From: Acidobacteriota bacterium
Lineage (GTDB): Bacteria > Acidobacteriota > Thermoanaerobaculia > Multivoradales > UBA5704
Length of the DNA stretch: 64,000 bases
Reading direction: 5' to 3'
Assembly (NCBI GenBank): GCA_040005235.1
Contig: JBDTZG010000018.1
Span: 32,777-96,776, forward strand
The translations under genes were made by a program, and so were the position numbers. The notes beneath the pieces are model-generated. The model did not search any database. It saw only the letters and a list, made by a program, of their open reading frames with translations, and was not told where the DNA came from. Below are positions 16,474 to 57,352 of this stretch, one piece after another. How positions within the stretch are numbered: position 1 is the stretch's first letter; every line of letters begins with the position of its first letter.

Positions 16474-16512
16474 CGCGGGGGCAAAATCAAAATCCCCGCC
16501 GCTCAATGGATC

Positions 16513-16785
16513 GAGATCACGGAGACGCGGCCCTAAGCCGCACAGAAATTCGCTGACGCGGCCGAGAAAATCGCTGAGGCCACCCGGCCAAACGGTAAAG
16601 TCACCGGGCCAATCCCTGAAGCCGCAGAGCGAAACGGTGAAGCCGCCGAAAAATTCGCCTAAGCCACTCAGAAAATGGGTGAAGCCACTCAGAAAATCAC
16701 TGGGGCCACACAGAAAATCACTGAAGCCACTGAGAAATTCGCTGAAGTCCCCTAGAAAACTCCTGAGGTCACGCAGAGTGGTCAA
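16513..16785 (+). repeat. Tandem array of about 13 degenerate 21-bp units (consensus GAAGCCACNCAGAAAWTCRCT)
   Basis: Exact 21-bp register, e.g. gaagccactcagaaaatcact / ggggccacacagaaaatcact / gaagccactgagaaattcgct. Confidence 0.9.
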
Positions 16786-16821
16786 TTTCTCGGTGGCGCG
16801 ACCGGATGATTGGACCCTTTC

Positions 16822-17117
16822 GGTGAATTATCCGGTGGCTTCATCGAATTTCTGTGTGGTTTCAGCCATCCTCCGGGGAAGTTGAACGACGTGTTGTGTA
16901 GTTTCGGTGCTCCGTTACGTGGCTTGGGCAACCGTTTGAGTGGCTTCAGTGATTTTCTGGGTGACTTCAGCGAATTTCTGGGTGGTTTCGCCCGCTGCGA
17001 CCGTGGTTTTGGGGCAATTTGAGGTGCTTCGTGGCGCTTTGCGGGGCTTGGTTGCCTAACGCTGCGTGGTTTCGCGGGATTTCCTGCGTGGCTTCGCGGG
17101 AAGTCCCGCGTGGCTTG
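16822..17117 (-). repeat. Second array of about 14 units of the same 21-bp repeat in inverted orientation
   Basis: Reverse complement gives gaagtcacccagaaaatcact, gaaaccacccagaaattcgct and gaaaccacacagaaattcgat; the distal units are 20-22 bp. Confidence 0.85.
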
Positions 17118-17343
17118 GCCCCTTCGGTAGCGGGTTTTGGGAGGCTGGCCGGAGTGACGGAGACGGCGCTGGGATTTGTGCGGCGGTTTGTGTAGCGGCC
17201 GGACTGCGTCCGTCTTATCTTCCAAAAGAACCGGGCTCCTGTCGAGCTGAGGATCCCGCGGATAGGGCAATTCTTGCCTGGGGTAGCGTAAACTCTAGGG
17301 CACAGTTCGAATCCAACGCGGGATTGCGCCCAGCCAACCGGGC

Positions 17344-20628: not shown

Positions 20629-20641
20629 GACTGAGGACACG

Positions 20642-21610: not shown

Positions 21611-21619
21611 GGAATCAGC

Positions 21620-23449: not shown

Positions 23450-23698
23450 TTCCATTTGCCGCGGGAGGCATAGTCCGAGCGCATATACTTCCTGATCGGT
23501 TCCGCGAGGGTGCTGAGTAGCCAGTTTGTGAGCGCTCGGCGCGGCGGCTGGTCGCCGGGGCTCTTTGATCAGGCGCTTGCCGGGCATCCTCCTTGGCGAA
23601 AGCCGCAGGGCGTCCCTATGCCCCCCTCCCCCGGGCACGTACTTCTTCGTATAGTCTCGACCACAGACCGGAGAGGGCACAGAGAGGGACTCCTGGGG

Positions 23699-24397
23699 AT
23701 GCGCATTCTGGTCGTCGAAGACGAACCCGCGCTTTCCTCGGCGCTTGCCGAGTTGTTGCGGCGTGAGTTCTATGCCGTGGACGTGGCGGAGGATGGGGCT
23801 ACGGCGGAGGAGCTGGCCTCGATCAATGCCTATGACTTGATCGTCTTGGATTGGACGATTCCGGCTCCGAACGGGATCGAGCTCTTGCGCCGTTGGCGGG
23901 GGAAGGGGGATCAGACCCCTGTTTTGATGCTTACGGCGCGGAGCGGGGTGGACGACCGGGTGGATGGTTTGGACACCGGGGCGGACGATTTTCTGGCGAA
24001 GCCGTTCTCGCTTGCGGAGTTTTTGGCCCGGGTGAGAAGCCTATTGCGGCGGCGGACGCGGACGCTTCAGAGCGAGCTCTCCGCGGCGGATCTGGCGATG
24101 GACCGGGCGGCACGGCGGGTGACGGTCGGTGGTCGGCCGCTCGAATTGTCGCCCAAGGAGTTTGCTCTCCTCGAATTTTTGCTCACCCGGCGGGATCAGG
24201 TGGTCTCCCGCACCGAGATCTCCGAGCACGTTTGGGACGATTCGTTCGATTCGTTCGCCAACGTGGTCGACGTCACGATCCATCGCCTGCGGAAGAAGAT
24301 CGACGGCGATCGGCCGGATCGCCTGCTGCAGACGGTCAAGGGGGTCGGCTACGTGCTGCGTGGCGAGCGCAGGATCCCTCCCGAGCCAGAGGGCTGA
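23699..24397 (+). CDS. OmpR/PhoB-family response regulator
   Basis: MRILVVEDE, LIVLDW, LMLTAR, GADDFLAKPF; winged helix with LSPKEF and TVKGVGY. Confidence 0.93.
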   Translation: MRILVVEDEPALSSALAELLRREFYAVDVAEDGATAEELASINAYDLIVLDWTIPAPNGIELLRRWRGKGDQTPVLMLTARSGVDDRVDGLDTGADDFLAKPFSLAEFLARVRSLLRRRTRTLQSELSAADLAMDRAARRVTVGGRPLELSPKEFALLEFLLTRRDQVVSRTEISEHVWDDSFDSFANVVDVTIHRLRKKIDGDRPDRLLQTVKGVGYVLRGERRIPPEPEG

Positions 24398-31176: not shown

Positions 31177-34100
31177 GGAAGAGACCCCAGAGTCCGTCAT
31201 CGAGATGAGCCGGGGTGTAATCACGGTACAGGTAGTCGCCGGTCACTCCGACCATGCCGCCGGCCCCGATCTTGAGCAGTGCATCGAAGTGGTCGGAAGC
31301 CCCCATGCCGTCGCGGGTTCCCTTCCATTCGCACACCGGGTTGGAGCCCTGCCGGGTCGAGTTGGAGCCGGCCAGGACCGGGTACTCCTCCCAGACGTGG
31401 CCGTGCAGATCGAAGACGATCGGCAGCTCGTGACCGCCCGGGTGAACGACCCGCATGCGGACCGAGTCTCCCTTGGTGGCTTGGAACACCGGTGTCTCAG
31501 GATCGTTGTGAATCCAGGCGTTCTCCATCAGCTGATGGAACTGGGTGAAATTGCGGGTGTCGTTGGTCGACGTTTCGGGCGACCAGCCGGCCCGGAACCA
31601 GAGCGGCTCGGTGCGGTAGTTGATCGCCTTCTGGCCGGAACCTTCGGAGTCGACGTTGACGATCAGATTCGGGATCGCCGGGCCGAACGCGGGGTTGCTG
31701 TAGTCGTAACCGTCGCCCTTGGTGAAGCGCAGGTTCAGGTCGTCTTGGAACATCACCACGAACTCCCTGAACTTGCGGACGTCCGTGGGGCTGATAACCG
31801 CCGAGGCGCGCGATTTGCGGATCGACAGGTCGGTTTCCGGTACCAGGTCCTCGGTCCAGGTGGATCCCGGCGGCTCGATGATCAGAGCGCCGATCGCCCC
31901 CTTGCTCGCGTGCTTGATCGGGTCGGAGGAGGTAAGGCCCGAGCCGCCGAACTCGACGGCCAGAGGGGTCGATCCGACGAACGATCCGGCGTACCAGTAG
32001 TAGACGACTCCTTCGCCGGGCGCCACCGTCTGCTTGCCCAACTGAGCCGGGTTCAAGCCGACGTTCGTCCCGTCGCTGGTCATGATGTCGTACGCCACCA
32101 GCTGGGGGTGGAGACCGACGTCGAGCGAAGTCTTCACCTGGTCGGCGTTGAAGTTCTCGACGATCATCGGCATGCCGTTGAAGCCGTCGAGAAGATCGGT
32201 GTAGGCAGGCGGGATGTCGTTGTTCAGCTTGACTTCGATGCACTCTCCGGCCCGGGCGCGCAAAACCAGAGGCTCCCGTCGGACGCTCGGAATCAGCAGC
32301 GGCCGGCCCTGCGAGTAGTCGAGGTCGCTCTTGTAGACGAACATGATGGCGTCGGACTGGTGCAGCGGACCGACGCTGATGCCGCCGTGGCCTTCGGGCG
32401 GAGAGGGGTGATTCACCACGTCCGGCCGCCGGTTGTAGATCAACCCGGCGTTCGCTCCGAAACCGTCGTTCCTGAGAACTTCGGCGGCGGAAACCGCAGT
32501 GATGTCGAAGTGCCGCAGCGTTGAGGCCGAGGGGCAGTTGGTCGGGATGGCCGAGCCGGCCGCGCCATTCCCGACGAGCGCACGGCTCGTTTCGCCATCC
32601 GTGTCGAAAGCCTTCACTCCGACCGCGGTGGAGGCTTCCGTGACCCGATAGCCGCCGGCGACGTCGGTGCCTCGGGCGTCGGGGTTCGTGCTTTCCAAAA
32701 CCCGGAGGTCGGGCCGCGGGCCGCGGTAGGCGCGGATCAATCCCCAGAGGCCATCCCACTGCGACTCGGTCGCCGCGCCCGGCTTATAGAGGAAGTCGGC
32801 GAACTTGCCGTCGGCATTGAGCGCCGGGATGCGGCCGACTTCGAGGTCGAACCACTCGGAGATGCCCATGCCCTGCGAGTTGCGCCAACCGGAATCGGCG
32901 ACTTCCGCCTCGCGGAGCCACTTCATGCCGTGAACCGTCATGTTGTGCGACTCTTCGTGGGCGCCGACCAGGACGCGGATCTTCACCGTGTCACCCTCGT
33001 AGGTCCGCAGCAGCGGCGTATATGGGTCGCCCTTGTAGAGGCTCGAAGGATCGGTCAGCGGGCCGTACGGCGCCTTGGTCAGGAAGGGCGCGTACGGGAA
33101 GGTGTTGAACTCGGGATCCCATCGGTCGGTGCGGGTCTCGTAGGCGAACGAAAGATCGCCGCCGCGGCCGAGCAAACCGCCCGTGTACTGCTGCGGGGTG
33201 GCGCCGGACTGGTCGAGGACGCGCAGAGCGAGCGGCTCATTGCGGTAGTTGACCGTCTTGGTCCCTGGGTCGTCGGCGGAGACCGCTTCCGGGCAGGGAG
33301 CCGGCGGTCCGGGCGTTCCCGGAGGAGCGTTGACCGGGCAGTCGATCGGCTTCGAGTAGAGGATCGGCGGGGCTTCTTCGTTTCTACCCGGCGGGTTGAT
33401 CGCCCGCTTCGGATCGGCGAAGCCGAGCGCATTGGTCGGGCATTTCGGGCTGCCCGGCTCGTAGGCGAGGAAGAAGTCGCCGAACTCCAGCATGAACTCG
33501 CGGTAGTTTTCGGTCGAGCTGCTGATCACGGCCTGCCAGCTGGTCGGGCCGCCGTCCTGCGAGAGGCCCAAACCCATGTTGGTGCCGAGGGCGGTGCCGG
33601 TTTCGTTGTGAGCCCAGGCCGAGCCCGTGGGCTCGACGATCAGTCCGGCGTACAGGCCCACCTGCTGGTGGGTGGACGGCCCGAAGTGGTCGTGGGTGAA
33701 GACGGTGCGTAGCGTGCGCTTGCCGCCCTGGAGGGTGGTCATCGGGTCCGCGTACCAGCGCTGGACGGTGGTCTGGGCGCCCAGCCATTCGTTGGAGTCC
33801 GACGCGTCGTTGCATTCCGCGGCGTGCGAGCCGAAGAACGGGTGGACCTGCGCCACCGGGCAGGAGGTGGGGTTGAAGGCGCCCGCGGCGCAGCCGTTGG
33901 CGAGCCGGATCGCCTTGATGCGCTCGCGCACCTCGGCGGGGCTGAAGGTGCCGTCCTCGTAGTTCCAACCGTTGCCGCCGCCGTCGGAGGCGAGAACGTC
34001 GAACTTCACCAGGTGGATGTGCTGGCCGAGGATGTCGGTCGGGGTCTTCACCTGGAAGTCGTCGAGCTCATAGCTGTTGGGCACCAGGTTGGTGTTCCAG

Positions 34101-36424
34101 AACTCGATGCACTCGCCTGCATTGGCGCGGAAGAAGAACGGCTCCGGCGGCCGGGTTCCGGCGAGCGTCGGGGCGACGTCGTTCCACAGCGTGATCATGC
34201 GCGCCTGCGGGAAGTGCCAGCCGGCCTTGTTGATCACCATGTCGAGCTGGATGTCCGCCGCCTTGTAGTAGCGCATCGTCGAGCCGGTGGGGCAGGGGTC
34301 GGCGATCGGCGCGCCGCGCACCTGCTTGTGGGTGTTGACCAGGAAGTTCTTGGTGGCCGGAAGGTTGTCGGCCCGCGGGGTGGTGTAGCCGGCGGCGTTG
34401 TTGTGGAAGCTCATCGCGGTCAGCTCGACCGGCTCGCCGGTCTCCGCGAGGAACCTCGGGGTGAGCGAAGTGATGACCTTGTCGAAGCTGAGCCGGGTCT
34501 CGACGTGGGTCGCGGTGCCCTTGACCACCACGTGGCGTTGGAGGCCGCCGTCGTGAATCGTGTCGAGAGGGGGGTGCGGGGCGCGTCGGCCGGCGATGCC
34601 GGGGACGAAGAAAGGATAGCCGGGGTTCAACGTGCCCAAGATCACGGGCTGGCCGGTCGTCTGATCGATCCGGGCGATGCCCGGGATCGGCGCCATCGGC
34701 AGCACCGGAATCGGCACCAGGCCGGGGATCGGCGTGCCGGCCAGGATCTCGTTGTCCGGCAGTGCGCGGGATTTCTCTTTCGGGCGCCCGTCGGGATCCA
34801 TCACGGTGCCGAGCTCCAGCACGTCGTGGACGCGCCAGAGCGACCACATGCCCTGCGCGAAGTGGGGATAGAAATGGCAGTGGAAGATCGAGTCGCCCGG
34901 CGTCTTGTTCAGGTTGCCGCTACCGCCGTTGGTGATCTCGTAGGTGAAGCTGCCGCCCTGGCCGATCGCCTGAGAGTCGCTGTAGTTCGACTTGTCTTCC
35001 TTCGGCGTGTGCAGCCACTGGTGGGCGTGAAGGTGGAAGATGTGGTGGTTGTCCGAGCCCGCATGCGAGTTGCGGAACTTGACGTGGTCGTTCAAATAGC
35101 TGTGATAGACGTTCGACGGGTCGTCGGGGTAGAGCGCGACTTTCGCCTTGCGTCCCGGGGTCGGAGTGCAGGGATAGGGGGCGACGTTGTTGAACGACGG
35201 CTCGCCCATCTGATCGAGGTCGCTCTCGGTGCAGGGCGCGTTGGCCGGCACGTCGACCACCATCGCCGGGTCGCCGATCGCCCAGGAGGAGAGGAAAAAC
35301 TCTTCGTACATGCACTCCGGGCAGTCGAGCGCCGGGCCGACGCCCAGGCGGTTCGCGATGATCTCGGCGCCCGCTCCTCCGGCTCCGTAGTTGATTGCGA
35401 AGGCGTCGCGGACGCTGTGAAGCGTGTGCTGCAGCTCCCGGTCCTCGAACTGCGGAAACGCCTGTACCGCGCCGATCTCGTCGTGGAAGATGATCGTGAA
35501 CTCACGGAACGGCTCGTTTCGCTCGGGGTAAATCTTGGTGGTGGGGTTGGCGGAGGAAAGCATGCCGGCACCGGGACCGGTGATGATCGCGGTCAGGTCC
35601 GAATGGACCAGCGTCCGGGCGGTGGAAGAACCGGTGTACATCTTGAGGATCGGCTTGCCCGCATAGCGGTGGCCGACCGGATACGTCGCGGCGTAGTTCA
35701 AACGGGGGAAGCCGTTCACGTCGGTCGTGGTCGTCGCGCGGGACATGTCGGCTTCGGTCACCTGGCTTCGGTACCACTCGGAGCCCGAGGGTTCCACGTC
35801 GATCGCGCCGAACAGGCCCGCGGAGATCGAACCGGCGTCCGCTTCGCCGCCGATCGGGGCGCCCATGCTGTGGAAGACGAACGTTCCTTCCTGGGGGGCA
35901 TAGAGGAGATAGTCGATCGAACCGCCGGGCGGGACGATGCCCGACGTGGGGTTCTGGCCGACGGAGGAACCATCGCTCTTGATCGTGTCGACCAGCTGCA
36001 TGCCGATCGCATGGATCGAGGCGTCGCGCGTGGCGGGCTGCTCCTCGTCGCGCTGCGCGCCATCCAAAAGGTTGGTGAAATGGATGCGCAGGCAGTCGCC
36101 GACGTTGACCCTCAGCACCAACGGCCGCGGTCGCTTGTCGCGCCGCAATTGGACCTGGCCGTAGGCGAGGACGTAGCTGACGCCCGGATCGGGAAGGCCG
36201 TCCGGGTCGGCGAGCGGCAGGACGTCGCCCTTGAGCGCGTACATCATGCCTTGGGGTTCGAGGGCGCCGTATCGATTCCAGGTCCAGGCCTGGTCGAACG
36301 CCACGACGTCGGCGTCGACGTAGCCGGCGCAAGTCACCTGCGCGGAGGCCGGCAGGGCAGCAAGGCCCGAGAATAAGGCGATGGCACACAACAGCCATCG
36401 AGTTGGACGGGGTAAGGCGTTCAT
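31166..36424 (-). CDS. Giant secreted multicopper oxidase, MnxG-like (putative Mn(II) oxidase)
   Basis: About 1750 aa with signal peptide; Cu motifs HIFHLHAHQW, FHCHFYPHFAQGM, GQHIHLV and THDHFGPSTHQ; repeated cupredoxin domains (PLVLR..GDC/GEC). Confidence 0.85.
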   Translation of the reverse strand: MNALPRPTRWLLCAIALFSGLAALPASAQVTCAGYVDADVVAFDQAWTWNRYGALEPQGMMYALKGDVLPLADPDGLPDPGVSYVLAYGQVQLRRDKRPRPLVLRVNVGDCLRIHFTNLLDGAQRDEEQPATRDASIHAIGMQLVDTIKSDGSSVGQNPTSGIVPPGGSIDYLLYAPQEGTFVFHSMGAPIGGEADAGSISAGLFGAIDVEPSGSEWYRSQVTEADMSRATTTTDVNGFPRLNYAATYPVGHRYAGKPILKMYTGSSTARTLVHSDLTAIITGPGAGMLSSANPTTKIYPERNEPFREFTIIFHDEIGAVQAFPQFEDRELQHTLHSVRDAFAINYGAGGAGAEIIANRLGVGPALDCPECMYEEFFLSSWAIGDPAMVVDVPANAPCTESDLDQMGEPSFNNVAPYPCTPTPGRKAKVALYPDDPSNVYHSYLNDHVKFRNSHAGSDNHHIFHLHAHQWLHTPKEDKSNYSDSQAIGQGGSFTYEITNGGSGNLNKTPGDSIFHCHFYPHFAQGMWSLWRVHDVLELGTVMDPDGRPKEKSRALPDNEILAGTPIPGLVPIPVLPMAPIPGIARIDQTTGQPVILGTLNPGYPFFVPGIAGRRAPHPPLDTIHDGGLQRHVVVKGTATHVETRLSFDKVITSLTPRFLAETGEPVELTAMSFHNNAAGYTTPRADNLPATKNFLVNTHKQVRGAPIADPCPTGSTMRYYKAADIQLDMVINKAGWHFPQARMITLWNDVAPTLAGTRPPEPFFFRANAGECIEFWNTNLVPNSYELDDFQVKTPTDILGQHIHLVKFDVLASDGGGNGWNYEDGTFSPAEVRERIKAIRLANGCAAGAFNPTSCPVAQVHPFFGSHAAECNDASDSNEWLGAQTTVQRWYADPMTTLQGGKRTLRTVFTHDHFGPSTHQQVGLYAGLIVEPTGSAWAHNETGTALGTNMGLGLSQDGGPTSWQAVISSSTENYREFMLEFGDFFLAYEPGSPKCPTNALGFADPKRAINPPGRNEEAPPILYSKPIDCPVNAPPGTPGPPAPCPEAVSADDPGTKTVNYRNEPLALRVLDQSGATPQQYTGGLLGRGGDLSFAYETRTDRWDPEFNTFPYAPFLTKAPYGPLTDPSSLYKGDPYTPLLRTYEGDTVKIRVLVGAHEESHNMTVHGMKWLREAEVADSGWRNSQGMGISEWFDLEVGRIPALNADGKFADFLYKPGAATESQWDGLWGLIRAYRGPRPDLRVLESTNPDARGTDVAGGYRVTEASTAVGVKAFDTDGETSRALVGNGAAGSAIPTNCPSASTLRHFDITAVSAAEVLRNDGFGANAGLIYNRRPDVVNHPSPPEGHGGISVGPLHQSDAIMFVYKSDLDYSQGRPLLIPSVRREPLVLRARAGECIEVKLNNDIPPAYTDLLDGFNGMPMIVENFNADQVKTSLDVGLHPQLVAYDIMTSDGTNVGLNPAQLGKQTVAPGEGVVYYWYAGSFVGSTPLAVEFGGSGLTSSDPIKHASKGAIGALIIEPPGSTWTEDLVPETDLSIRKSRASAVISPTDVRKFREFVVMFQDDLNLRFTKGDGYDYSNPAFGPAIPNLIVNVDSEGSGQKAINYRTEPLWFRAGWSPETSTNDTRNFTQFHQLMENAWIHNDPETPVFQATKGDSVRMRVVHPGGHELPIVFDLHGHVWEEYPVLAGSNSTRQGSNPVCEWKGTRDGMGASDHFDALLKIGAGGMVGVTGDYLYRDYTPAHLDDGLWGLFRVK

Positions 36425-36586
36425 TCCTGTCTCCTTGGGCGACACCGGCGCCCGTTAGGTTTGAATCTGCGCCAACCCTAGGGCCCTCACCCTTACACCG
36501 GCATTACAGGAGGGCGAAAATGCCTGCCCCTCCTTTTCTGGTCTTTTGGCGAGCCGGGGTTTTTGAAGGCAGCATAAGCTCCGCGA

Positions 36587-47896: not shown

Positions 47897-48907
47897 CTAA
47901 CCCGGCCAGATCGAAGCGGCGATCTCCGCCAGCTCGTGCGCGTCGGGCGCGGGGACGGGCGGCTCCCCGGCGTCGAGCGCACGCTCCAGCCGGGCGATGA
48001 TTTTGAACAGCTCGGGGCGGCTGACTTTGGCCCCAGGCCCTTTTTCCTCCAGCCGATCCAGCGAGGCGAGCGCGAGCCGGGCGGGTAGGGCGTTGAAGGC
48101 GACGATGCCGCGAACGGCGCCCGCGAGCTGGATCGTCCGGACGTATTCGCCCGCCAGGCCGAGATCGCGGCGGGCGAGCGCGAACACCTCCTCGCGCGGC
48201 ACGTCGGGCGGCAGGTAGGTTCGCCCCTCGACCGCATCGCCCGCGGCGTCCTTCAAAATATTGACCAGTTGCAGCCCCTCGCCGAAATCGCGCGAGCGGA
48301 CGCGCAGCTCCTCGGCCACCGATTGCAGCTCCGGCCGGTCGAGCAGCAGTAGTTCGGTGAGCAGCTCGCCGACAATTCCCGCGACTACGTAGCAGTAGTG
48401 GCGCAGGTCGGTGAGGTCGACCAGAACCAGCTCGCCCCGGTCGGTCATCCGGTCGACGAAATCGGCCATGCCGAGCACCGTGCGCAGCGTAGAGGCCCGC
48501 ACCAGCTCGCTGGCTCGGGCGCCCAGCGCATACGCGGCTTCCAGCACGGCGGGCATTCGGACCATCAGCTCGCGGTAGCCCGGCTGCGCGCAGGGGACCG
48601 TCTCGCTCCAGAGCGCGGCGAGCCTTTCGGCCTCGGCCGGCGCGGGCGTTGCGAGCAGATGGCCGAACTGTTCGAGCGCCTCGCGGCGTTTCTCGCGCGG
48701 CCAGGTCGCGGCGTCCTCGAACGTGTCGGCGATGCGGAACAAAAGGTAGGCGAGCGTCACCTCGCGCCGCGTCGGTTCGGGCAGGTGTGGAATCGACAGC
48801 GCGAACGTCCGGCTGGTCTTGCCGAGAAGATCCTCGAAATCGGTTTCGGCATCGAGGGCCGGATCGACGATTGGATCCACGGCCGGGCTCGCGGGTTCGG
48901 TGGACAT
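47897..48907 (-). CDS. Squalene/phytoene synthase family protein (squalene synthase-like)
   Basis: TSRTFALSI, YLLFRIADTFED, YCYVVAGIVGELLT and FGEGLQLVNILKD. Confidence 0.88.
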   Translation of the reverse strand: MSTEPASPAVDPIVDPALDAETDFEDLLGKTSRTFALSIPHLPEPTRREVTLAYLLFRIADTFEDAATWPREKRREALEQFGHLLATPAPAEAERLAALWSETVPCAQPGYRELMVRMPAVLEAAYALGARASELVRASTLRTVLGMADFVDRMTDRGELVLVDLTDLRHYCYVVAGIVGELLTELLLLDRPELQSVAEELRVRSRDFGEGLQLVNILKDAAGDAVEGRTYLPPDVPREEVFALARRDLGLAGEYVRTIQLAGAVRGIVAFNALPARLALASLDRLEEKGPGAKVSRPELFKIIARLERALDAGEPPVPAPDAHELAEIAASIWPG

Positions 48908-48939
48908 TTCCGGGAGGATAGCAGGCCGGACCGCGCGGT

Positions 48940-49728
48940 TTAGCCGATTCTCGTACCTGGCAAATCTTCGCCACGGATCGCGGCGGCCAGCCGGCCCGCC
49001 GCGCGCCCATCGAGGATCGTCGAAGGAATGCCGCGCCGGGCAAGCGCCAGGCATGTTTCAAGTCGCAGGCGCATTCCGCCGGTGACGTCCGTGCCGCGCG
49101 CCGCGCCGATCGCCGCGTCTTCGAGCTTCGAGAGCCGGGGGATCGTCGTACCCGCCGCGTCGTACACCCCGTCGGTCTCGCCGAGCCAGAGCGCGCGGGA
49201 GATCTCGATTCCGAGCGCGGGCAGGCCGCGCGCGATTTCAGAGAGCACCGCCTCGGTCGAAGCGATCGAAGCGCCCCAGGTCCGATCGAGCACGACATCG
49301 CCGTAAACCACCGGCAGCAGGCCGAGCCGCAGAGCGTGTGCGAGGGGGCCGAGAAAGCAATCGACCGGGGCGCCGCCCTCGGCCAGCAGAAAACTAGAAG
49401 GCGCGAGCGAAAACGGCGCGAGCCCCGCGGCGCGGAGCGCCTCGACCACAAGAGAGTGGAGCGCCGCGGCCCGCTCCTGCGTGCGGCTCGCGCCCGCGAG
49501 GTTTCGGGGATCGAGAGGACCTTTCCCGAGACCCGCCGCCGCAGCGGCCACGTGACCAAACGAACCGCTGCCGTGCCCGAGCACGATCCGCTCGCCGTTC
49601 GCCTCCGCCGCCTCCCGCGCCGCCGCGATCTCTCGCGCCAGCCGTTCGATCCGCTCCGGATGCGCCTTCTCGGGGGTTTCCTTGTCGGTCAGCAAGCTGC
49701 CGCCGAGCTTGATCAGGAGGGCGCGCAT
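48940..49728 (-). CDS. ipk: Isopentenyl phosphate kinase (amino-acid-kinase fold)
   Basis: IKLGGSLLTDK, HGSGSFGH (IPK-type His), PVVYGD and DVTGGM; mevalonate operon context. Confidence 0.88.
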   Translation of the reverse strand: MRALLIKLGGSLLTDKETPEKAHPERIERLAREIAAAREAAEANGERIVLGHGSGSFGHVAAAAAGLGKGPLDPRNLAGASRTQERAAALHSLVVEALRAAGLAPFSLAPSSFLLAEGGAPVDCFLGPLAHALRLGLLPVVYGDVVLDRTWGASIASTEAVLSEIARGLPALGIEISRALWLGETDGVYDAAGTTIPRLSKLEDAAIGAARGTDVTGGMRLRLETCLALARRGIPSTILDGRAAGRLAAAIRGEDLPGTRIG

Positions 49729-49764
49729 GGTTGGGGATTCTATTTGAACCCATCGCCGCAGGGC

Positions 49765-50108
49765 GTAGAGACGCTCCAGTACCCAACCACGACAGAACCG
49801 GGTGCTGGCCGTCGGGGCGTCTCCTCGCGCGAAAACGCATCATCCATCGCCCACGGTCGGCAACGCGCGAAGGGTGCCTGCATGTGGGGTTGCGCGCACG
49901 ACGACAACCGCCTCGGATTGCGGGGGTACCGGATAGGTTCTTCCGGCCGATTTCACGCTGACCCGGTTCGGTCACGCCGCTGCGGGTGGCGCCGGGTAGT
50001 TGCGTCCGGGCGGTTCCACGCTGACCGGTTCGGTCGCGCCGCTATCGGAGACGCCCCGACGGGCTGGCACCCGGTTCTGTCGTGGTTGGGTACTGGGGGC
50101 GTCTCTAC
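49765..50108. mobile_element. Non-autonomous REPIN/MITE-like element with about 60-bp terminal inverted repeats starting GTAG
   Basis: 49765-49824 (GTAGAGACGCTCCAGTACCCAACCACGACAGAACCGGGTGC...GGGGCGTCTCC) is the near-perfect reverse complement of 50047-50108. Confidence 0.75.
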
Positions 50109-50123
50109 ATTCTTGAGGTGAGG

Positions 50124-51128
50124 TCAGATCAAATGCTCCGTCAACCGCTCCGGCCCGTCGCCTACGGCGTCGCGGATGACGAAACCTACGCTGGGAAGGC
50201 TTTCCAGGCGGTCGACGAGGTCGGCTTCGGATTCAGGCTCGCAGATGACGTGGACGTTCGCTCCAGCGTCCATGGTGGACCAGACGGCGAGGCCTTCTTG
50301 GCGCAGCTCGCGGACGGCGCGGAGGACTTCGATCGAGCCGGGGCTCCAGTAATGGATGGCGGGGCGGGATGACATGGCGACGAGGTGGAGGTCAATCGCC
50401 TCTTCTTCGATCGTGGCGCCAAGGAGGGCGAAATCGCGGTCGGCGATCGCGCTGCGCACTCGGTTCAGCCGGTCGGGGATCAGCTCCTGGCGGCGGGTGT
50501 AGTAAGGCGAGGTCTGGGCTAGCGCGTGACCGTCGCGGGAGGAGACCGATTTTGGACCGATCTCGACCACCGCGATGATGTCGCGAAGATCCCAATGCTC
50601 GGCCGCGGCGAGCGGGCGGGCGAAAGAATCCTCGTCCTGGGTGCCCGACCATTCGACGTAACCGCCGAGCACCGAGCGGCAGGCCGAGCCCGAGCCGCTC
50701 CTCCGGGCGAGGAGCGACGCTTCGCGCGGCGAAAGGCCGCGGCCGAGAGCGCTCGAAGCCGCGAGCGTCAAGGCGGAAAAACCGGAGGCGGACGAGGCGA
50801 GGCCAGCCGCGCTGGGAAAGTTGTTGCGCGTTGCGATGCGAAGCCGGCCGGCGCCCGGCGGGACGCCCAGCTCGCCGCGCAGGCGATCGAGATGGCGGAG
50901 GATCGGTCCGGCAAAATCCGCTTTCGGCGCGATGAAGCCACCGTCGGGTTCGGTCAGCCAGATCTCGTCCTCCGCCGCTTCGATCGGCTCTGCGGTGCAG
51001 GTGGAGACGCAGCGGCTCAGAGTCATCGAGATCGAAGGGTTCTTCGGCAGGCAGAGCGCGGCGTCGCTCACGCCCCAGTACTTGATGAAGGCGATATTGG
51101 CGGGCGCTTCGAACGTGGCTTTGCTCAT
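50124..51128 (-). CDS. mvaD: Diphosphomevalonate/phosphomevalonate decarboxylase family
   Basis: ANIAFIKYWG, NNFPSAAGLASSASG, SGSGSACRS and TMDAGANVH. Confidence 0.9.
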   Translation of the reverse strand: MSKATFEAPANIAFIKYWGVSDAALCLPKNPSISMTLSRCVSTCTAEPIEAAEDEIWLTEPDGGFIAPKADFAGPILRHLDRLRGELGVPPGAGRLRIATRNNFPSAAGLASSASGFSALTLAASSALGRGLSPREASLLARRSGSGSACRSVLGGYVEWSGTQDEDSFARPLAAAEHWDLRDIIAVVEIGPKSVSSRDGHALAQTSPYYTRRQELIPDRLNRVRSAIADRDFALLGATIEEEAIDLHLVAMSSRPAIHYWSPGSIEVLRAVRELRQEGLAVWSTMDAGANVHVICEPESEADLVDRLESLPSVGFVIRDAVGDGPERLTEHLI

Positions 51129-52222
51129 CCAGGCTCCTCGGATTCTTCGATTCGCAAACCTTGCGCCCCGAGCGCGACCTCGCGTCGGGTATACCCTTCT
51201 AAAATCGCCTGCGCATCGCCATCCTCGGGCATCACCACCAGGAGCGAGCCCGCGGATTCGCCGCTCGCCGCGCCGGCGCCCGAGATCTTCGCCGCACCGC
51301 CCGCCTCTTCGATCGCCCGCACCCGCCGTGCTACCGTTTCCGGCACCGCGCCCATCGAGTCGAGACAGGCCTCCGCCTCGCGGATGGGGTCGATCAGGTT
51401 ACGGCGGCTGCCGCTGGGAGTTTCGAGCTCGGTTCGAAACGCGCGCGTCGCCCGCTCGAAACGATCGAGTGTCTCGTCGAAGCGGCGAGGATCGCGGTCG
51501 CGCACGCGGCGCACCGCGGCGACCACCTCGCCGGTCGACTCGCGCGGCCTGCCGGTATCGTAGACCGCGATTTCGGAGAGGAGAGGCGAAGCGGAATCGA
51601 GGGTGGTGAAGCTCAGGCGGTCGGGGTGCTCCGTCGTCCGCTCCGCCCAGACCAGGCCGCCGCGGACGACGGTTTCGGTGTCGATGCCGGAAGGCCGGCC
51701 ATGCTGGCACCGTTCGACGTCGAGCGCCGCGGCGAGCAGAGCGTCGCGGCCTGTCGTGGCGCTGCCCATCGCCGCTTCGAACGCCGCGAGAACGCCCACC
51801 GCGGCGGCGGCCGAGCTGCCGAACCCGCTGCCCACGGGCAAGTTCGAACGAACGTCGATTTCGATGCCCGGCAGCTCTCGCGGCGAGAGGCCGGCGCGGG
51901 ATAGGGCCGCGCCGAGAGCGACTTTCACCAGGTGGGCGGCTTCCGTGCCGCGCACGGCCGAAAAATCGGTCGCGGGTTCGGTGTCGAAGCGGCTCCAGGC
52001 GGCGAAGGCCCGCGACGCGTGCTCGGCGATCTCGGTCCAGGTGGTCTGCTCGGTATGAGCGATGCCGGGTAGCGAAAGCGAAACCCCACTTGCGCCGATG
52101 GGAACCACCGTGACGCTCAGGCGTTTGTCGATCGCCGCCGCGAGCGCCGGTCGTCCGTAGACGACCGCGTGCTCGCCGATCAGAATCAGCTTGCCGGGAA
52201 CGGAGACGCGGACAGGGCGCAC
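51125..52222 (-). CDS. mvk: Mevalonate kinase (GHMP family); start approximate
   Basis: PGKLILIGEHAVVYG, PVGSGFGSSAA, HGRPSGID and KISGAG. Confidence 0.9.
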   Translation of the reverse strand: MRPVRVSVPGKLILIGEHAVVYGRPALAAAIDKRLSVTVVPIGASGVSLSLPGIAHTEQTTWTEIAEHASRAFAAWSRFDTEPATDFSAVRGTEAAHLVKVALGAALSRAGLSPRELPGIEIDVRSNLPVGSGFGSSAAAAVGVLAAFEAAMGSATTGRDALLAAALDVERCQHGRPSGIDTETVVRGGLVWAERTTEHPDRLSFTTLDSASPLLSEIAVYDTGRPRESTGEVVAAVRRVRDRDPRRFDETLDRFERATRAFRTELETPSGSRRNLIDPIREAEACLDSMGAVPETVARRVRAIEEAGGAAKISGAGAASGESAGSLLVVMPEDGDAQAILEGYTRREVALGAQGLRIEESEEPG

Positions 52223-52242
52223 GAAGCTCGGAGGGCCGAGCG

Positions 52243-53532
52243 TTAGTCGAACGAGAGAGCCGGCCGCTCGACGCCGCGTCCGAGCTTTTCGTGGGCGCGC
52301 GCCAGGTCCTGCGAGGTGAAGGCCGCCATCAACGACAGCTCGCCCGCGAGCACCGCGGCGCCGAGGATCTCGGCCAGCCGCATCGCGGCGACGCCCGGGC
52401 GCTCCGGATCGGGGGTGACGCCGAGGATCGCGAGCGCTTCGCTCTGAGTCTGAAGGCCGGTGCCGCCGCCGATCGCGCCGATCGGCACGTCGGGCAGGAA
52501 CACCGAGGCGAACACCGAGTCCTCGCCGCGCGGCTCGATGCAGGTGACGCCGAGCGACCCTTCGACCACGTGGGCGGGATCCTGGCCCGTGGCGATGAAG
52601 AAGGCGGCGAGGACATTGGCGAAATGGGCGTTGTAGCCCTTGGAGCCCGACGCGATCGAGCCGAGCAGGTTCTTCCTGTATTGCACCTCGACGAGCGCCT
52701 TGGCGTTGGTCTTGAGCACGTCCTGCAGCACCTGGGGACCCAGCACCACCTCGGCGTAAATGCGTTTGCCGCGCCCCTCCTGAAAGTTCAAGTCGGCGGC
52801 TTTCTTGTCGACGCAGTAGTTGCCGGAGAGGCCGATGCACGGCACGCCGGTCGCCGGCTCGATCAGGTCCGAGACCACCCGGTCGCAGGCGATGGTCGCC
52901 ATGTTCATGCCCATGGCGTCGCCCGCGTCGAAGCGGAAGCGGAGAAACACGGTGGTGCCGAACGCAAACGTCCGCACGTCGACCAGCCGCAGGTGGTGGC
53001 TGGTCTTTTCGGTGACCGCCTTCAAGTCGTCGAAGTGGTCTTTGATCCAGGCGAGAAAGCGCTGGGTCTGTTCGATGCCTGAAGTTCGGAAGACCGGCGC
53101 GCGGGTCATGCCGACGTCTTCGACTCTGACCACCGCGCCGCCCGCTTCGCGGATCGCCGTGCAGCCGCGGTTGGTGCTCGCGACCAGGGCCGCCTCGGTG
53201 GTGGCGAGCGGAACGTAGAACTCCCCCTCGGCGTAGAGGCCGCGCACGGACAGCGGACCGACCACGCCCATCGGGATCTGGGCGACGCCGATGAAGTTTT
53301 CGCAGTGGCGCTTGCTCGCGCGCTGCACGTCGAGAGAATGGTGCGCGATGTGGTGCAGCTCCGTCCGGGTGAGCCGTTCGATCGCCTCCCGGCGGATGTC
53401 GCTCGCCTCCTCGGCGGAGAGATCCCTCGGCAGCTGGTGGAAGTGCAGCTCGCGGGAGGCCAGCGCGCGGACGAGATCGTCGTGGCGCGAGCGGAGAGGA
53501 GCGAGGGGGGTGATGGAGCTGATCATGGTCAT
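52243..53532 (-). CDS. hmgA: Hydroxymethylglutaryl-CoA reductase, NADPH-dependent class I
   Basis: CENFIG, PLATTE, GDAMGMNM, SGNYCVDKK, TGQDPAH, GGGT and LAGELSL...H. Confidence 0.95.
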   Translation of the reverse strand: MTMISSITPLAPLRSRHDDLVRALASRELHFHQLPRDLSAEEASDIRREAIERLTRTELHHIAHHSLDVQRASKRHCENFIGVAQIPMGVVGPLSVRGLYAEGEFYVPLATTEAALVASTNRGCTAIREAGGAVVRVEDVGMTRAPVFRTSGIEQTQRFLAWIKDHFDDLKAVTEKTSHHLRLVDVRTFAFGTTVFLRFRFDAGDAMGMNMATIACDRVVSDLIEPATGVPCIGLSGNYCVDKKAADLNFQEGRGKRIYAEVVLGPQVLQDVLKTNAKALVEVQYRKNLLGSIASGSKGYNAHFANVLAAFFIATGQDPAHVVEGSLGVTCIEPRGEDSVFASVFLPDVPIGAIGGGTGLQTQSEALAILGVTPDPERPGVAAMRLAEILGAAVLAGELSLMAAFTSQDLARAHEKLGRGVERPALSFD

Positions 53533-53544
53533 CGCCTTATCGGA

Positions 53545-53579
53545 AATCCAGAATCGAGAATCTAGAACCCGGAATCCAG
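53545..53579. repeat. Five tandem 7-bp repeats
   Basis: aatccag aatcgag aatctag aacccgg aatccag between fni and hmgA. Confidence 0.7.
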
Positions 53580-53602
53580 AGTGCATCTTCCCGGAGGGAC
53601 AT

Positions 53603-54685
53603 TCAGCCCCCGTTCCTTCGTTCCAACCGCACCCGGGCCAAATCCGCGGGTGTTCTCGCGCCCAGGCAGAGCATCGCGATTTTTAGCTCGCGAATCGTCC
53701 GTTCGATCCGCTCGATCACCCGCTCCGGCGACTCGGTCGCCGCCGCGAGGAAACGATAGGCCATGCCGGCCAACCGCGCCCCGAGCGCAAGCGCCTTGGC
53801 GACGTCCAGGCCGTGGCGGATGCCGCCGCTGCCGAGAATCGTCAAACCGCCGATCCGCGCGAGCGCCGCGATCGACTCGGGAGTCCGCACGCCCCAATCG
53901 GCGAACAGCTCGCCCAAATCGAGGTCGCTCGCCCGCGCCGCCTCGATCCGCGCCCAACTGGTACCGCCCACTCCAGCGGTGTCGAGGATCGTAAAGCCGC
54001 GCGAGGAAAGCGCCCAGCCGGTCGCTTCGGAGAGGCCGGAGCCGACCTCCTTGACGATTACGGGCACCTCGATCTTTTGCGCCACCGCGGCCATCCGGTC
54101 GAGCAGGCCGGCGAAGTTTCGCTGCCCCTCGGGCTGAATCGCCTCTTGGAGCGGGTTCAGGTGAAAGACCAGGGCGTCGGCCCCGATCATCTCCACCGCC
54201 CGCCGGCACTCGTCGAGCCCGATCCCGTAGTTCAGCTGGACGGCGCCCAGATTCGCCAACAGGGGGACCGACGGTGCCAGATCGCGAACGCGGAAACTAT
54301 CAGCTTTGCTCGGGTCCTCCAACGCCTTGCGCTGGGAGCCGAGGCCGATCGCCACGCCGGTCGCTTCGGCGGCGATGGCCAGATTGCGGTTGATCCGCGC
54401 GGCGATTTCGGTGCCGCCGGTCATCGAGGAGATCAAGAGCGGAGCCTTGAGCGTCCGGCCGAGAAACTCGGTCGAAAGGTCGATCGCGTCGAAATCGAGC
54501 TCGGGCAGCGCCTCGTGACCGAACCGGTAGTCGTCGAACGCGCTCGCCTCGACCTGCATCCGGGTTTCCAGAGCGAGCCGGATGTGCTCGGCCTTGCGGT
54601 CGCGCAGCTCCGGATCGAGGAGAGCCGGGGGATCTTGGGGGTCGATGGTCGCCTCGGCCGTCTCCGCCGTTTCGAGCGCGCTCAT
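53603..54685 (-). CDS. fni: Type 2 (FMN-dependent) isopentenyl-diphosphate isomerase
   Basis: RKAEHI, SSMTGG, GSQR, HLNPLQE..QPEG, VKEVG, GGTSW and SGGIR. Confidence 0.95.
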   Translation of the reverse strand: MSALETAETAEATIDPQDPPALLDPELRDRKAEHIRLALETRMQVEASAFDDYRFGHEALPELDFDAIDLSTEFLGRTLKAPLLISSMTGGTEIAARINRNLAIAAEATGVAIGLGSQRKALEDPSKADSFRVRDLAPSVPLLANLGAVQLNYGIGLDECRRAVEMIGADALVFHLNPLQEAIQPEGQRNFAGLLDRMAAVAQKIEVPVIVKEVGSGLSEATGWALSSRGFTILDTAGVGGTSWARIEAARASDLDLGELFADWGVRTPESIAALARIGGLTILGSGGIRHGLDVAKALALGARLAGMAYRFLAAATESPERVIERIERTIRELKIAMLCLGARTPADLARVRLERRNGG

Positions 54686-55833
54686 GTCTCGCGCCCCCGC
54701 AGGTGGTCGAGCAGGCCGGAGAAGAAGACCTGCCCCTCGGGCCCGAGCGCGACGCCCGAAAGCGCATCGCGCGCGTCGGCGAGCCGGAAGTCGATCATCT
54801 CTTCGACCTTCGCCCGCGCGCCGGAGGCTTCGATCAGCCGCTGGATCTGCCGCGCCCGCAGCTCGTCGAGGCTCGGATCGCCGAGCGCCGCGGCGATCGT
54901 CGCCCGGTCGGCAGGGGTCGACCCGGCGAGCGCGTGATGGATTAGAAAGGTGAGCTTGCCCTCTTTCAAATCCGCCTCGACCGGCTTGCCGGTGCGCTCC
55001 GGGTCGCCAAACGTGCCGAGCAGGTCGTCCTGAAGCTGAAATGCTTCGCCCACCGAGCGGCCGTAGCGGCAGAGCGCCGCGGTTGACTCAGGCGGTGCTC
55101 CGGCGAGGAGCGCGCCGAGTTGAATCGGCCGTTCCGCCGTGTAGCGCCCCGATTTCATCTGGAGCACGCGCAGCAGCTCGGCTTGCCGCACCTCGTTCGG
55201 CCGGGTCCGGCGGCCGGCGATCAGCAGCTCGGAGTATTGGCCGGCGATCACCTCTTCGCACATCGCGGCGAAGGCGGCGAGCAGCTCGGAGCGCCGTGCG
55301 CCGTCGATGGGAAGTGCGAACACCTGCTCGACCGCCCAGGTCTGCGCGAGATCGCCCAACAGGATCGCGACCGAGATGCCGAACTCGCCCGCATCCCCGG
55401 CGAGACCGCGCGAGCGGTAGGCGTCGCGAAAGCGCACCTGCGCCGAAGGCTCGCCGCGCCGAAGTTCGGCGTGGTCCATCACGTCGTCGTGGATCAGCAG
55501 ATAGGTGTGCAATAGCTCGGTTGCGAGCGCGAGCGGCAGGGCCTCTTGGTCCTTCGTTCCGCCGAACGCGCGGTAGGTGAACCAGACGAACGCCGGGCGC
55601 AACCGCTTGCCGCCCAGGTTCGCCAGGTGGCCGATGCCGTCGATCAGCTCCAGCCGCGCCAGGTCGCCGCTTTCGCCTTCGCCGCGCGCCGCGCGCCGCT
55701 TGGCCGCGAGCAGTTCGTCGAGCGCCGCGTCGAGCCGGGCGCGAAAATCGGCGAACAGCGGGTCGAAAGACAAGTTTTCGCCGTGGAGCGGTCGAGCCTC
55801 CGGAGCGAAAGCGATGGCGATGGGCGAAGTCAT
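54682..55833 (-). CDS. Short-chain polyprenyl (FPP/GGPP) diphosphate synthase
   Basis: GGKRLRP; FARM HDDVMD with Tyr at -5; RRG; SARM FQLQDDLLG. Confidence 0.9.
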   Translation of the reverse strand: MTSPIAIAFAPEARPLHGENLSFDPLFADFRARLDAALDELLAAKRRAARGEGESGDLARLELIDGIGHLANLGGKRLRPAFVWFTYRAFGGTKDQEALPLALATELLHTYLLIHDDVMDHAELRRGEPSAQVRFRDAYRSRGLAGDAGEFGISVAILLGDLAQTWAVEQVFALPIDGARRSELLAAFAAMCEEVIAGQYSELLIAGRRTRPNEVRQAELLRVLQMKSGRYTAERPIQLGALLAGAPPESTAALCRYGRSVGEAFQLQDDLLGTFGDPERTGKPVEADLKEGKLTFLIHHALAGSTPADRATIAAALGDPSLDELRARQIQRLIEASGARAKVEEMIDFRLADARDALSGVALGPEGQVFFSGLLDHLRGRET

Positions 55834-55918: not shown

Positions 55919-57277
55919 TCAGGCGCCCTTCACCCGATAGCTCCGAAGCTTCCGGTTCAGGGTCTTGACGTCGATGCCCAGGATCCGCGCCGCGCGCGCC
56001 TTCAAGCCGCCGGTGTAATCGAGCGTCCGCATCAGGTGCCGACGCTCGATCTCGTCGAGCGGCAGCGGTTCGGACAGGTCGTCCGCCTCGCTCTGCGCCG
56101 GCAGGTTGGGGCGGAAGCCGTGGGGCAGATCCTCGACCGCGATCGTGTCGCCGCGCGAGAGCAGCACCGCGGTTTCGACCGTGTTGGCCAACTCGCGGAC
56201 GTTGCCCGGCCAGGAGTACGAGGCGAGCAGGTCGAGCACCGGGTCGGAGAACCGCTTGCGCGCGGTGCCCGGGACGTGGAACCGCTCCAGGTAATAGTCG
56301 AGCAGCAGCGGTACGTCCTCGCGCCGGTCGCGCAGGGGGGGCATGCGGATCTGCACCACGTTCAGGCGGAAGAACAGGTCGCGGCGGAACCTGCCGGCGG
56401 CGATCTCTTTTTCCAGATCGCCGTTGGTCGCTGCAACCACCCGCACGTCGATGGTCTTTTCGACCGTCGCGCCGACCGGGCGGATCTCCTGCGTGTCGAG
56501 CACCTGGAGTAGCTTCGCCTGCATCACGGGTTTCAGCTCGGAGACCTCGTCCAGAAAGATCGTGCCGCCGTCTGCGACCTCGAACAGGCCGGGTTTCGAT
56601 TCGACCGCGCCGGTGAACGCCCCTCGGGCATGGCCGAACAGCTCGCTTTCGAACAGCGCTTCCTGGAGCGCGCCGCAGTTGATCTGAAGGAACGGTTCGC
56701 GCCCGCTCGCGAGGTGAAGGGTCTTGGCCATCAGGCCCTTGCCGGTGCCGGTCTCGCCGGTGAACAGAACCGGAGCGCGCGAGGTGGCGATGGTTTCGAG
56801 CTTGCGCAGGACGTCCTGGATTCTTTGCGAGGTCGAAACGATCGGTCCGGTGAACGGCTGCTGCGCCGCGATCCGGCGCAAAACCGTGTTCTCGCGCGCC
56901 AGCCGGTGCCGTTCGACGGCGTGCGAGACGGTTCGCACGAGAGCCTCGGCGCCGATCGGTTGGCGGATGAAATCGAACGCGGTGCGGCGCATCGCCTCGA
57001 CCGCCTGTTCGAAGGTTGCCGCGGCCGAGGTGACGATCACTTCGGGGGCGAGCCCGGCGCCGCGCACCTCCGCGATCAGCTCCAAGGGGTCGCGCCCGGG
57101 CAGATCGAGGTCCAGGACCAGGACGTCGACGTTGAGGCGACCGATCGCTCGGGTGACGGTTTCACCGTCGTCGGTCGTCGCCACCATCAGCCCGGCTTGG
57201 CGAAGTGCTTTCTCGGCAAACGGGGCGAACGATTGGTCGCTGAGCGCAAGCAAGATTTGGGAACCGTTCATCGTCAT
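55919..57277 (-). CDS. Sigma54-dependent NtrC-family activator with an atypical receiver domain
   Basis: GETGTGK, ESELFGH..GAFTGA, FLDEV, WPGNVREL and a Fis-type HTH. Confidence 0.92.
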   Translation of the reverse strand: MTMNGSQILLALSDQSFAPFAEKALRQAGLMVATTDDGETVTRAIGRLNVDVLVLDLDLPGRDPLELIAEVRGAGLAPEVIVTSAAATFEQAVEAMRRTAFDFIRQPIGAEALVRTVSHAVERHRLARENTVLRRIAAQQPFTGPIVSTSQRIQDVLRKLETIATSRAPVLFTGETGTGKGLMAKTLHLASGREPFLQINCGALQEALFESELFGHARGAFTGAVESKPGLFEVADGGTIFLDEVSELKPVMQAKLLQVLDTQEIRPVGATVEKTIDVRVVAATNGDLEKEIAAGRFRRDLFFRLNVVQIRMPPLRDRREDVPLLLDYYLERFHVPGTARKRFSDPVLDLLASYSWPGNVRELANTVETAVLLSRGDTIAVEDLPHGFRPNLPAQSEADDLSEPLPLDEIERRHLMRTLDYTGGLKARAARILGIDVKTLNRKLRSYRVKGA

Positions 57278-57334
57278 GGCATTCTCTGATTTTGTGTCCG
57301 GCAAGGGTTGGCTGGAATCATCAAACGGGTCACA

Positions 57335-57352
57335 TTGCAGGTTCAGTGCCAA
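57335..57352 (-). promoter_or_regulatory. Putative sigma54 -24/-12 promoter
   Basis: Minus strand TTGGCACTGAACCTGCAA has exact GG-N10-GC spacing, about 60 bp upstream of the activator start. Confidence 0.6.

Follow-up and report, generated by a model that had tools for sequence, protein, structure and literature searches.

A seven-gene operon in Acidobacteriota predicted to encode a mevalonate pathway with phosphomevalonate decarboxylase and isopentenyl phosphate kinase

Which route to isopentenyl diphosphate (IPP) is encoded when a mevalonate kinase (MVK), a decarboxylase (MvaD) and an isopentenyl phosphate kinase (IPK) share an operon that contains no phosphomevalonate kinase (PMK)? The question is raised by a 64,000-nt stretch of contig JBDTZG010000018.1 (assembly GCA_040005235.1) from a soil-dwelling member of the Acidobacteriota. 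This whole stretch is referred to as the window, and all coordinates are window coordinates. The locus was analyzed by means of a list of open reading frames (ORFs) and profile searches with Pfam and NCBIfam, and N-termini were read from the sequence. Positions 47897-55833 hold seven genes in a tight operon on the minus strand, in the order isoprenyl diphosphate synthase (IDS)-fni-hmgA-mvk-mvaD-ipk-squalene synthase (SQS)-like. Judged from its sequence, the operon most likely encodes the lower mevalonate pathway in the form established experimentally for haloarchaea and Chloroflexi alone, which relies on a phosphomevalonate decarboxylase (PMD) and IPK, and is the only route to IPP in this organism. 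Four kinds of evidence make this reading the most likely one: the absence of alternatives from the genome, the residue states of MvaD, the linkage of the genes within operons and a contrast with related loci of the Candidate Phyla Radiation (CPR).

In the proposed route, the class-I 3-hydroxy-3-methylglutaryl-CoA (HMG-CoA) reductase would reduce HMG-CoA and MVK would phosphorylate mevalonate. MvaD would then act as an ATP-dependent phosphomevalonate decarboxylase on mevalonate-5-phosphate, and IPK would phosphorylate isopentenyl phosphate to IPP. The isomerase encoded by fni would yield dimethylallyl diphosphate (DMAPP), the polyprenyl synthase would elongate the chain and the SQS-like enzyme would probably join prenyl diphosphates head to head. 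An initial annotation, made from the letters of the window alone, had listed the same seven genes, called the reductase class I and NADPH-dependent, pointed out a SSRDGH motif in MvaD, where His replaces the classical Met and the Arg is retained, and found neither HMG-CoA synthase (HMGS) nor thiolase in the window. All of these observations were recovered here.

Genome-wide search for PMK and the MEP pathway

The search covered the whole assembly (6.22 Mb in 140 contigs, 100% complete and 0.33% contaminated according to marker genes). The GHMP N-domain model identifies only four genes in the entire genome: mvk, mvaD, the thrB gene of a thr operon and a 327-aa sugar-kinase-like gene on contig 56. 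Because these are the only GHMP genes, the genome contains neither IspE nor a GHMP-type PMK. The sole genome-wide match of the PMK model TIGR01220 is mvk itself (24.7 bits), and the animal-type PMK model PF04275 finds nothing in the whole genome at E-values up to 10. DXR and IspH of the methylerythritol phosphate (MEP) pathway have no match anywhere in the genome (nine and ten model genomes gave control matches). The genome is without an MEP pathway and without a PMK of either type, and it contains MVK, a decarboxylase resembling mevalonate diphosphate decarboxylases (MDDs) and a single-copy IPK. The initial annotation had named PMK and MEP genes as what should be looked for in the genome, and the outcome agrees with its reading of the operon.

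The contig-56 gene was considered as a hidden PMK, which would restore a classical pathway. The encoded kinase is most similar to heptose-phosphate kinases (3k85, 90.7 bits). Its gene starts 9 bases after an M23 peptidase gene, and its other neighbors, an extracytoplasmic function (ECF) sigma factor and Nuo/Mrp subunits, are equally uninformative on function. Homologues were screened in 41 relatives (E ≤ 1e-25). They are present in all 13 of the other tested genomes that carry IPK and lack DXR, a distribution that would suit a PMK, but they are also present in 11 of the 16 relatives with DXR and no IPK, and only 4 of the 12 genomes with both IPK and DXR carry one (8 lack it). Because this distribution does not track the pathway, the gene is a lineage gene rather than a pathway gene, and its identification as PMK is not supported.

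IPK and DXR were mapped across 301 sampled acidobacterial genomes, with IPK counted when above the model cut-off. IPK is present in 26 genomes: this one, 10 out of 11 others in the same order, none of the 17 others in the same class and 15 out of 272 elsewhere in the phylum. Overall, 19 genomes lack DXR, 14 of which belong to the 26 IPK-positive genomes (12 carry DXR) and 5 to the 275 IPK-negative genomes (270 carry DXR). G023, G048, and G146, which carry an unpublished flag, are part of these tallies, each scored as lacking IPK and carrying DXR. Both precursor pathways may run in the 12 acidobacterial genomes that carry IPK together with DXR. Nine genomes outside the phylum, whose completeness is not given, were also examined: DXR was not found in Longimonas, the Isosphaeraceae genome and two Caldilineaceae genomes, and it is present in two co-assembled metagenome-assembled genomes (MAGs). 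Two Gemmatimonadales genomes that carry the operon lack DXR and contain only two GHMP matches, both within the operon. The lack of a third GHMP kinase in these genomes argues against a hidden PMK of this family.

Residues, phylogeny and operon linkage of MvaD

Among solved structures, the best relative of MvaD is 6n0x/6n0y (251 bits), with classical MDDs (also called diphosphomevalonate decarboxylases, DMDs) at 169 bits or less. Aoki 2022 identifies 6n0x as the phosphomevalonate decarboxylase of Anaerolinea thermophila with mevalonate-5-phosphate bound. The window enzyme carries Y17, V20 (at the Lys21 site), R151, K193, S197, R198, H201 (at the Met site), and D287. Its catalytic set is retained, K193, S197, R151, and D287 being aligned with K187, S191, R144, and D282 of the Enterococcus enzyme. 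This set comprises the catalytic Asp, the Lys in the beta10-alpha4 loop and the Arg and Ser that bind carboxylate and phosphate. Two positions differ from the MDDs of Enterococcus and Staphylococcus: Val20 stands at the site of the diphosphate-binding Lys21 (YWG-K) where these enzymes have Lys, and the SSRDGH motif has His where they have Met. A comparison of the mutant structure 6n0z with 6n0x shows two aligned changes, YWG-N to K and G-H to M, which its authors presumably regarded as critical for the diphosphate. MvaD has the PMD state (Val, His) at both of these sites. Lys21 is listed as conserved in the MDDs of bacteria, Sulfolobales, and eukaryotes and as replaced in decarboxylases of the phosphomevalonate type (MPDs) in table 4 of Dellas 2013 (PMC3857490).

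The same residue states extend across the clade. In an alignment of 71 clade sequences, Lys and Arg never occur at the Lys21 site (69 informative sequences, 2 truncated). All 71 have His at the Met site and retain the residues equivalent to K187, S192, R144, and D283. The position of the retained Arg is Leu in 36 sequences, Arg in 23, Ile in 10, Val in 1, and Ser in 1. MvaD of the window thus combines the fold and the catalytic residues of the family with the loss of Lys21, His at the Met site and a closer similarity to a characterized PMD, features that support, from sequence comparison, the proposal of the initial annotation that it is a phosphomevalonate decarboxylase.

Relatives of MvaD were collected by a scan of species-representative genomes, and the best 80 of 582 were used for the comparison of loci, the alignment and the tree. 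Sequence identity to the window protein is 53-66% for relatives mostly within the Thermoanaerobaculia and other Acidobacteriota, 57-58% for Gemmatimonadota, 51-54% for Rhodothermales/Salinibacteraceae, 50% for an Isosphaeraceae MAG, 47% for a gammaproteobacterial MAG, 40-49% for Chloroflexota, and 40-43% for CPR. A quick IQ-TREE phylogeny of 80 MvaD rows, with one sequence of fewer than 300 residues (L067) left out, was calculated with SH-aLRT values as the only support measure. The Chloroflexota (seven rows) branch as a basal grade, and the three CPR rows are the nearest outgroup. A clade of 69 rows with a support of 100 contains 60 Acidobacteriota, 3 Gemmatimonadota, 3 Rhodothermota, 1 planctomycete, and 2 unlabelled rows, one of which is the window; within this clade the window falls into a group of 30 rows of Thermoanaerobaculia (support 98). 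Together with the synteny, this position points to a host of the class Thermoanaerobaculia. A phylogeny of MvaD had been proposed with the initial annotation; the structure matches and the tree, on its assumed CPR root, place the protein with the Chloroflexi PMDs and not with the classical enzymes. The initial annotation had further suggested that the haloarchaeal-type route extends to another bacterial lineage; the new lineage is supported, and the extent was understated, since the operon occurs in at least four phyla besides the Chloroflexota.

Acidobacteriota, the three Gemmatimonadota and the Isosphaeraceae locus share the gene order IDS-fni-hmgA-mvk-mvaD-ipk-SQS, and three loci of the Rhodothermota keep the core of HMG-CoA reductase, mvk, mvaD, and ipk. 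Overall, IPK is present in the mvaD locus in 64 out of 70 loci that belong neither to CPR nor to Chloroflexota, and a second full-length MVK-like kinase is present in none of the 70 (in four, a single gene appears as two pieces). Of the six loci that lack IPK, three end less than 900 bp downstream of mvaD, and in the other three mvaD is immediately followed by the SQS-like gene. The latter are acidobacterial (L045, L055, and L085), and IPK was not found within 8 kb downstream. Among the Chloroflexota, IPK is nearby in only one of seven loci.

In the three CPR loci (L050, L081, and L086) the decarboxylase is preceded by two MVK-like kinases, and the locus lacks IPK. At the Lys21 site their decarboxylases have K, K, and R, and all three have Asn in place of the catalytic Asp. 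These loci serve as an internal contrast, in which a basic residue at the Lys21 site goes together with two kinases and no IPK.

The operon and its surroundings

The features of the operon and of the adjacent sequence are listed in table 1. The gene order is identical on a 20.8-kb contig of a relative with about 94% identity that was obtained in another study (run X3), and the arrangement is therefore not an assembly artefact. The contigs of a further run (X2) match the window exactly except for a break within the mvaD-ipk spacer. The IDS/fni and mvk/mvaD gene pairs each overlap by 4 bases (ATGA). As regards expression, no RNA holder is listed for the operon.

Table 1. Coordinates of the operon genes, the mvaD-ipk spacer and the upstream regulator gene within the 64,000-nt window
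Feature	Coordinates	Strand	Evidence or remark
Short-chain trans-polyprenyl diphosphate synthase (IDS), operon gene 1	54682..55833	-	PF00348, 183.9 bits
Type-2 (FMN) isopentenyl-diphosphate isomerase, fni	53603..54685	-	TIGR02151, 391.6 bits (cut-off 281.3)
Class-I NADPH HMG-CoA reductase, hmgA	52243..53586	-	TIGR00533, 451.3 bits (cut-off 441.8)
Mevalonate kinase (GHMP), mvk, GTG start	~51125..52222	-	TIGR00549, 156.6 bits (cut-off 163.05)
MvaD, predicted phosphomevalonate (mevalonate-5-phosphate) decarboxylase	50124..51128	-	PF22700 + PF18376
mvaD-ipk spacer, 395 bp, filled by a dispersed inverted-repeat element	49729..50123		arms 49776-49824 and 50047-50096
Isopentenyl phosphate kinase, ipk (amino-acid-kinase fold)	48940..49728	-	NF040647, 149.8 bits (cut-off 120)
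Divergent squalene/phytoene-synthase-family gene, last in the operon	47897..48907	-	PF00494, 112.3 bits
Sigma-54-dependent response regulator (context)	55919..57352	-	Response_reg, Sigma54_activat, and HTH_8 domains

The top NCBIfam matches of IDS are synthases of the farnesyl/geranylgeranyl diphosphate (FPP/GGPP) type, every one of them below its cut-off. The HMG-CoA reductase belongs to class I, as the class-II model TIGR00532 scores far lower (40.7 bits); its closest solved structure is 6hr7 (394 bits), and the real start of hmgA may be an ATG near 53525-53531. The ORF of mvk (571 aa) over-extends into hmgA, and the N-terminus was read at the GTG at 52222. All matches of this protein in the PDB are mevalonate kinases, and the PMK model TIGR01220 scores 33.3 bits. 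The predicted IPK matches IPKs in the PDB with up to 107.8 bits and carries the motif HGSGSFGH. The His of this glycine-rich motif is described as an IPK signature in Dellas 2013 (PMC3857490). Among the related loci, 58 of 67 IPK sequences match the motif pattern and the remaining 9 carry HGSGS[FY]GH. The SQS-like protein falls short of the squalene synthase equivalog TIGR01559 (79.6 against 286.75 bits), scores still lower with the HpnC, HpnD, and CrtB models and reaches only about 40 bits with squalene synthases in the PDB; it can be assigned only at the level of the family (PF00494). The gene was detected in 49 of the 80 related loci.

Copies of about 60 nt of the inverted-repeat element in the mvaD-ipk spacer, often arranged as inverted pairs, are spread over 18 contigs (59 BLAST pieces). 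The spacer holds 881 different bases in the relative with about 94% identity, and mvaD and ipk are nearly adjacent in most related loci. The gene of the sigma-54-dependent response regulator ends 86 bases upstream of IDS on the same strand. Elsewhere in the window, positions 16000-24000 have a G+C content of 0.52-0.60, compared with about 0.67 in the remainder, and encode ORFs without a family match as well as a CHAT-domain protein of 1094 aa (17344-20628); this region is probably an acquired island. A 1759-aa ORF with a weak multicopper-oxidase domain match (31166-36445, minus strand) adjoins the gene of a protein with a match to the cytochrome d1 heme domain.

HMG-CoA supply, alternative explanations and known systems

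Several observations weigh against a PMD-IPK pathway and have to be set beside the evidence above. With regard to the enzymes, MvaD exceeds the cut-off of the diphosphomevalonate decarboxylase equivalog TIGR01240 (227 against 171.35 bits) and falls short of the haloarchaeal PMD model NF040704 (IPP_alt_MvaD, 138.3 against 475). Annotation pipelines will consequently call it a classical DMD. TIGR01240 does not split PMD from DMD, as the CPR enzymes and the window enzyme both pass. Furthermore, MvaD retains Ser-Arg (S197, R198) like the classical MDDs, which is no counter-argument as far as the Arg is concerned, because this site varies among the 71 clade sequences. Three features of the Roseiflexus MPD, namely Arg83, Ala201, and Thr255 (from table 4 of Dellas 2013, PMC3857490), are replaced by Cys26, Ser146, and Ser197; the Anaerolinea PMD likewise has Ser-Ser and Ser at the sites of Ala201 and Thr255. 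The tree contains neither a classical DMD of Firmicutes or eukaryotes nor a characterized enzyme and is not enough on its own to assign the clade to the PMDs, and its root on the three CPR rows is an assumption. With regard to the genome, the TIGR01220 control stayed below the cut-off in Lactococcus, and the enumeration of GHMP domains is consequently the main basis for the absence of PMK. The PMK step may also be supplied by a kinase of unrelated fold. Distantly related kinases reportedly act in the classical pathway of Flavobacterium johnsoniae.

The remaining point concerns the entry of the pathway. HMGS was not found in the genome with four models (TIGR01835, NF003274, PF08540, and PF01154) or by tblastn searches with the HMGS of three relatives, so that the pathway as read here is incomplete at its entry. 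A FabH-like gene on contig 139, which scores 63.9 bits with the archaeal HMGS model, was tried as a divergent HMGS and rejected, as it has the Pfam domains of beta-ketoacyl-ACP synthase III (KAS III); orthologues with 64-65% identity are present in the MEP-only genomes G039 and G079. Contigs 62 and 14 also gave FabH-like matches, which are ordinary KAS III. Among the 14 IPK-positive genomes without DXR, PF01154 identifies HMGS in 7 and not in the other 7. One of the latter (G157) has a match to the archaeal-type HMGS model (163.7 bits) with one in-frame TGA, and five (G168, G286, G021, G089, and G147) show nothing above the FabH-like matches with this model. The near-complete HMGS-negative relatives include G089, a single contig, and G286, which consists of two contigs.

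HMG-CoA might instead be derived from leucine. The genome encodes a second acyl-CoA carboxyltransferase, a candidate for the beta subunit of methylcrotonyl-CoA carboxylase that is widespread and has homologues 2-36 kb from HMGS in six relatives. In two genomes (G007, C34:21559-25846; G041, C1:303357-307667) a weak HMGS-like gene (30-34 bits with PF01154) lies about 2 kb from a homologue of this subunit, a pairing that hints at a leucine/HMG-CoA gene cluster. An HMG-CoA lyase was not found in the genome; the only HMGL-like protein is encoded by an isopropylmalate/citramalate-synthase-like gene beside a leuB-like gene.

The explanation that survives best beside de novo synthesis is that the operon only draws on imported mevalonate or on HMG-CoA released in the breakdown of leucine, or is a decaying remnant. 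It would account for the missing HMGS and for the putative carboxylase subunit. However, all seven genes are intact, no MEP pathway exists as a replacement, and the single-contig genome G089 carries IPK and lacks DXR, HMGS, and any match to the carboxyltransferase at E 1e-100. We consider this explanation rather unlikely, and it bears on the entry of the pathway and not on the PMD and IPK steps. A broader proposal is put forward tentatively, at odds only slightly better: that the PMD-IPK operon is conserved in Acidobacteriota, Gemmatimonadota, and Planctomycetota (with its core in Rhodothermota) and often is the sole source of IPP, and that genomes without HMGS obtain HMG-CoA by an undescribed route, either a non-homologous synthase or obligatory leucine catabolism.

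A second possibility, which we regard as improbable, is a dual-specific MvaD, intermediate between PMD and DMD, that accepts the mono- and the diphosphate, with only the monophosphate mattering in vivo as no PMK exists. The mixed active site would fit, with Val for Lys21 and His for Met196 next to the retained Ser192 and Arg193, and a Chloroflexota enzyme with both activities, linked to the loss of Lys and the retention of His, is described in PMC11052028. Nothing in the sequence speaks against dual specificity, which differs from a strict PMD by a side activity alone. The weakest alternative, a classical route in which the contig-56 kinase, a bifunctional mevalonate kinase or an unrelated kinase serves as PMK, MvaD is a DMD and IPK only salvages isopentenyl phosphate, is very improbable: the TIGR01240 match, the conserved Ser-Arg and the co-occurrence of the contig-56 kinase with IPK in DXR-less genomes would agree with it, but Lys21 is lost clade-wide, 47 of the 71 sequences have Leu, Ile, or Val at the Arg site and IPK is tied to mvaD in 64 of 70 loci.

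If the PMD-IPK pathway holds, it would be common in abundant phyla of soil and sediment as a compact operon, and standard annotation would mislabel its PMD as a classical decarboxylase. This would bear on the evolution of the mevalonate pathway, on metabolic models of Acidobacteriota and Gemmatimonadota and on the choice of enzymes for engineering.

Previous studies, in the portions accessible, confine this pathway among bacteria to one phylum. Hoshino and Gaucher (2018, PMC6107057) name the Chloroflexi as the sole phylum of bacteria for which MPD and IPK are known, Dellas 2013 (PMC3857490) reports clear bacterial IPKs only in the class Chloroflexi, a 2024 paper that widens the range of PMD within the Archaea names the Chloroflexota as the sole bacteria (PMC11052028), and a 2026 review in J Bacteriol likewise places PMD with IPK only in Chloroflexi. 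The searchable literature, beyond whose reach some potentially relevant papers lie, contained nothing relevant on a PMD-IPK route in Acidobacteriota, Thermoanaerobaculia, Gemmatimonadota, or Salinibacter. The operon is a known type of pathway in lineages where the searchable literature does not place it.

Compared with the classical operon (MVK, PMK, and DMD; MDD structures 5V2L and 2HK2), the locus has the GHMP decarboxylase fold, the catalytic Lys/Ser/Arg/Asp and the TIGR01240 match in common, but it differs by the absence of PMK, the presence of IPK and the changes of Lys21 to Val and Met to His. The gene set of CPR bacteria (Microgenomates type, Hoshino and Gaucher 2018, PMC6107057) differs by its two MVK-like kinases and the lack of IPK in the locus. 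The PMD and IPK of Haloferax volcanii resemble the predicted pathway in the order of reactions and in the IPK family, although MvaD of the window lies outside the NF040704 equivalog. The closest match is the pathway of the Chloroflexota, represented by MPD and IPK of Roseiflexus castenholzii (PMC3857490) and by the PMD of Anaerolinea thermophila (6N0X/6N0Y), which has the same combination of MVK, MDD-like decarboxylase, and IPK with neither PMK nor MEP pathway. Like the Anaerolinea PMD, MvaD lacks Lys21 and has His at the Met site, but it keeps Ser192 and Arg193, does not share Arg83, Ala201, and Thr255 of Roseiflexus and belongs to a host of a different phylum, the Acidobacteriota. Furthermore, the genes of the Chloroflexi are dispersed and include an HMG-CoA reductase of class II (HMGR-II) according to PMC6107057, whereas the acidobacterial genes form one seven-gene operon with a class-I reductase.

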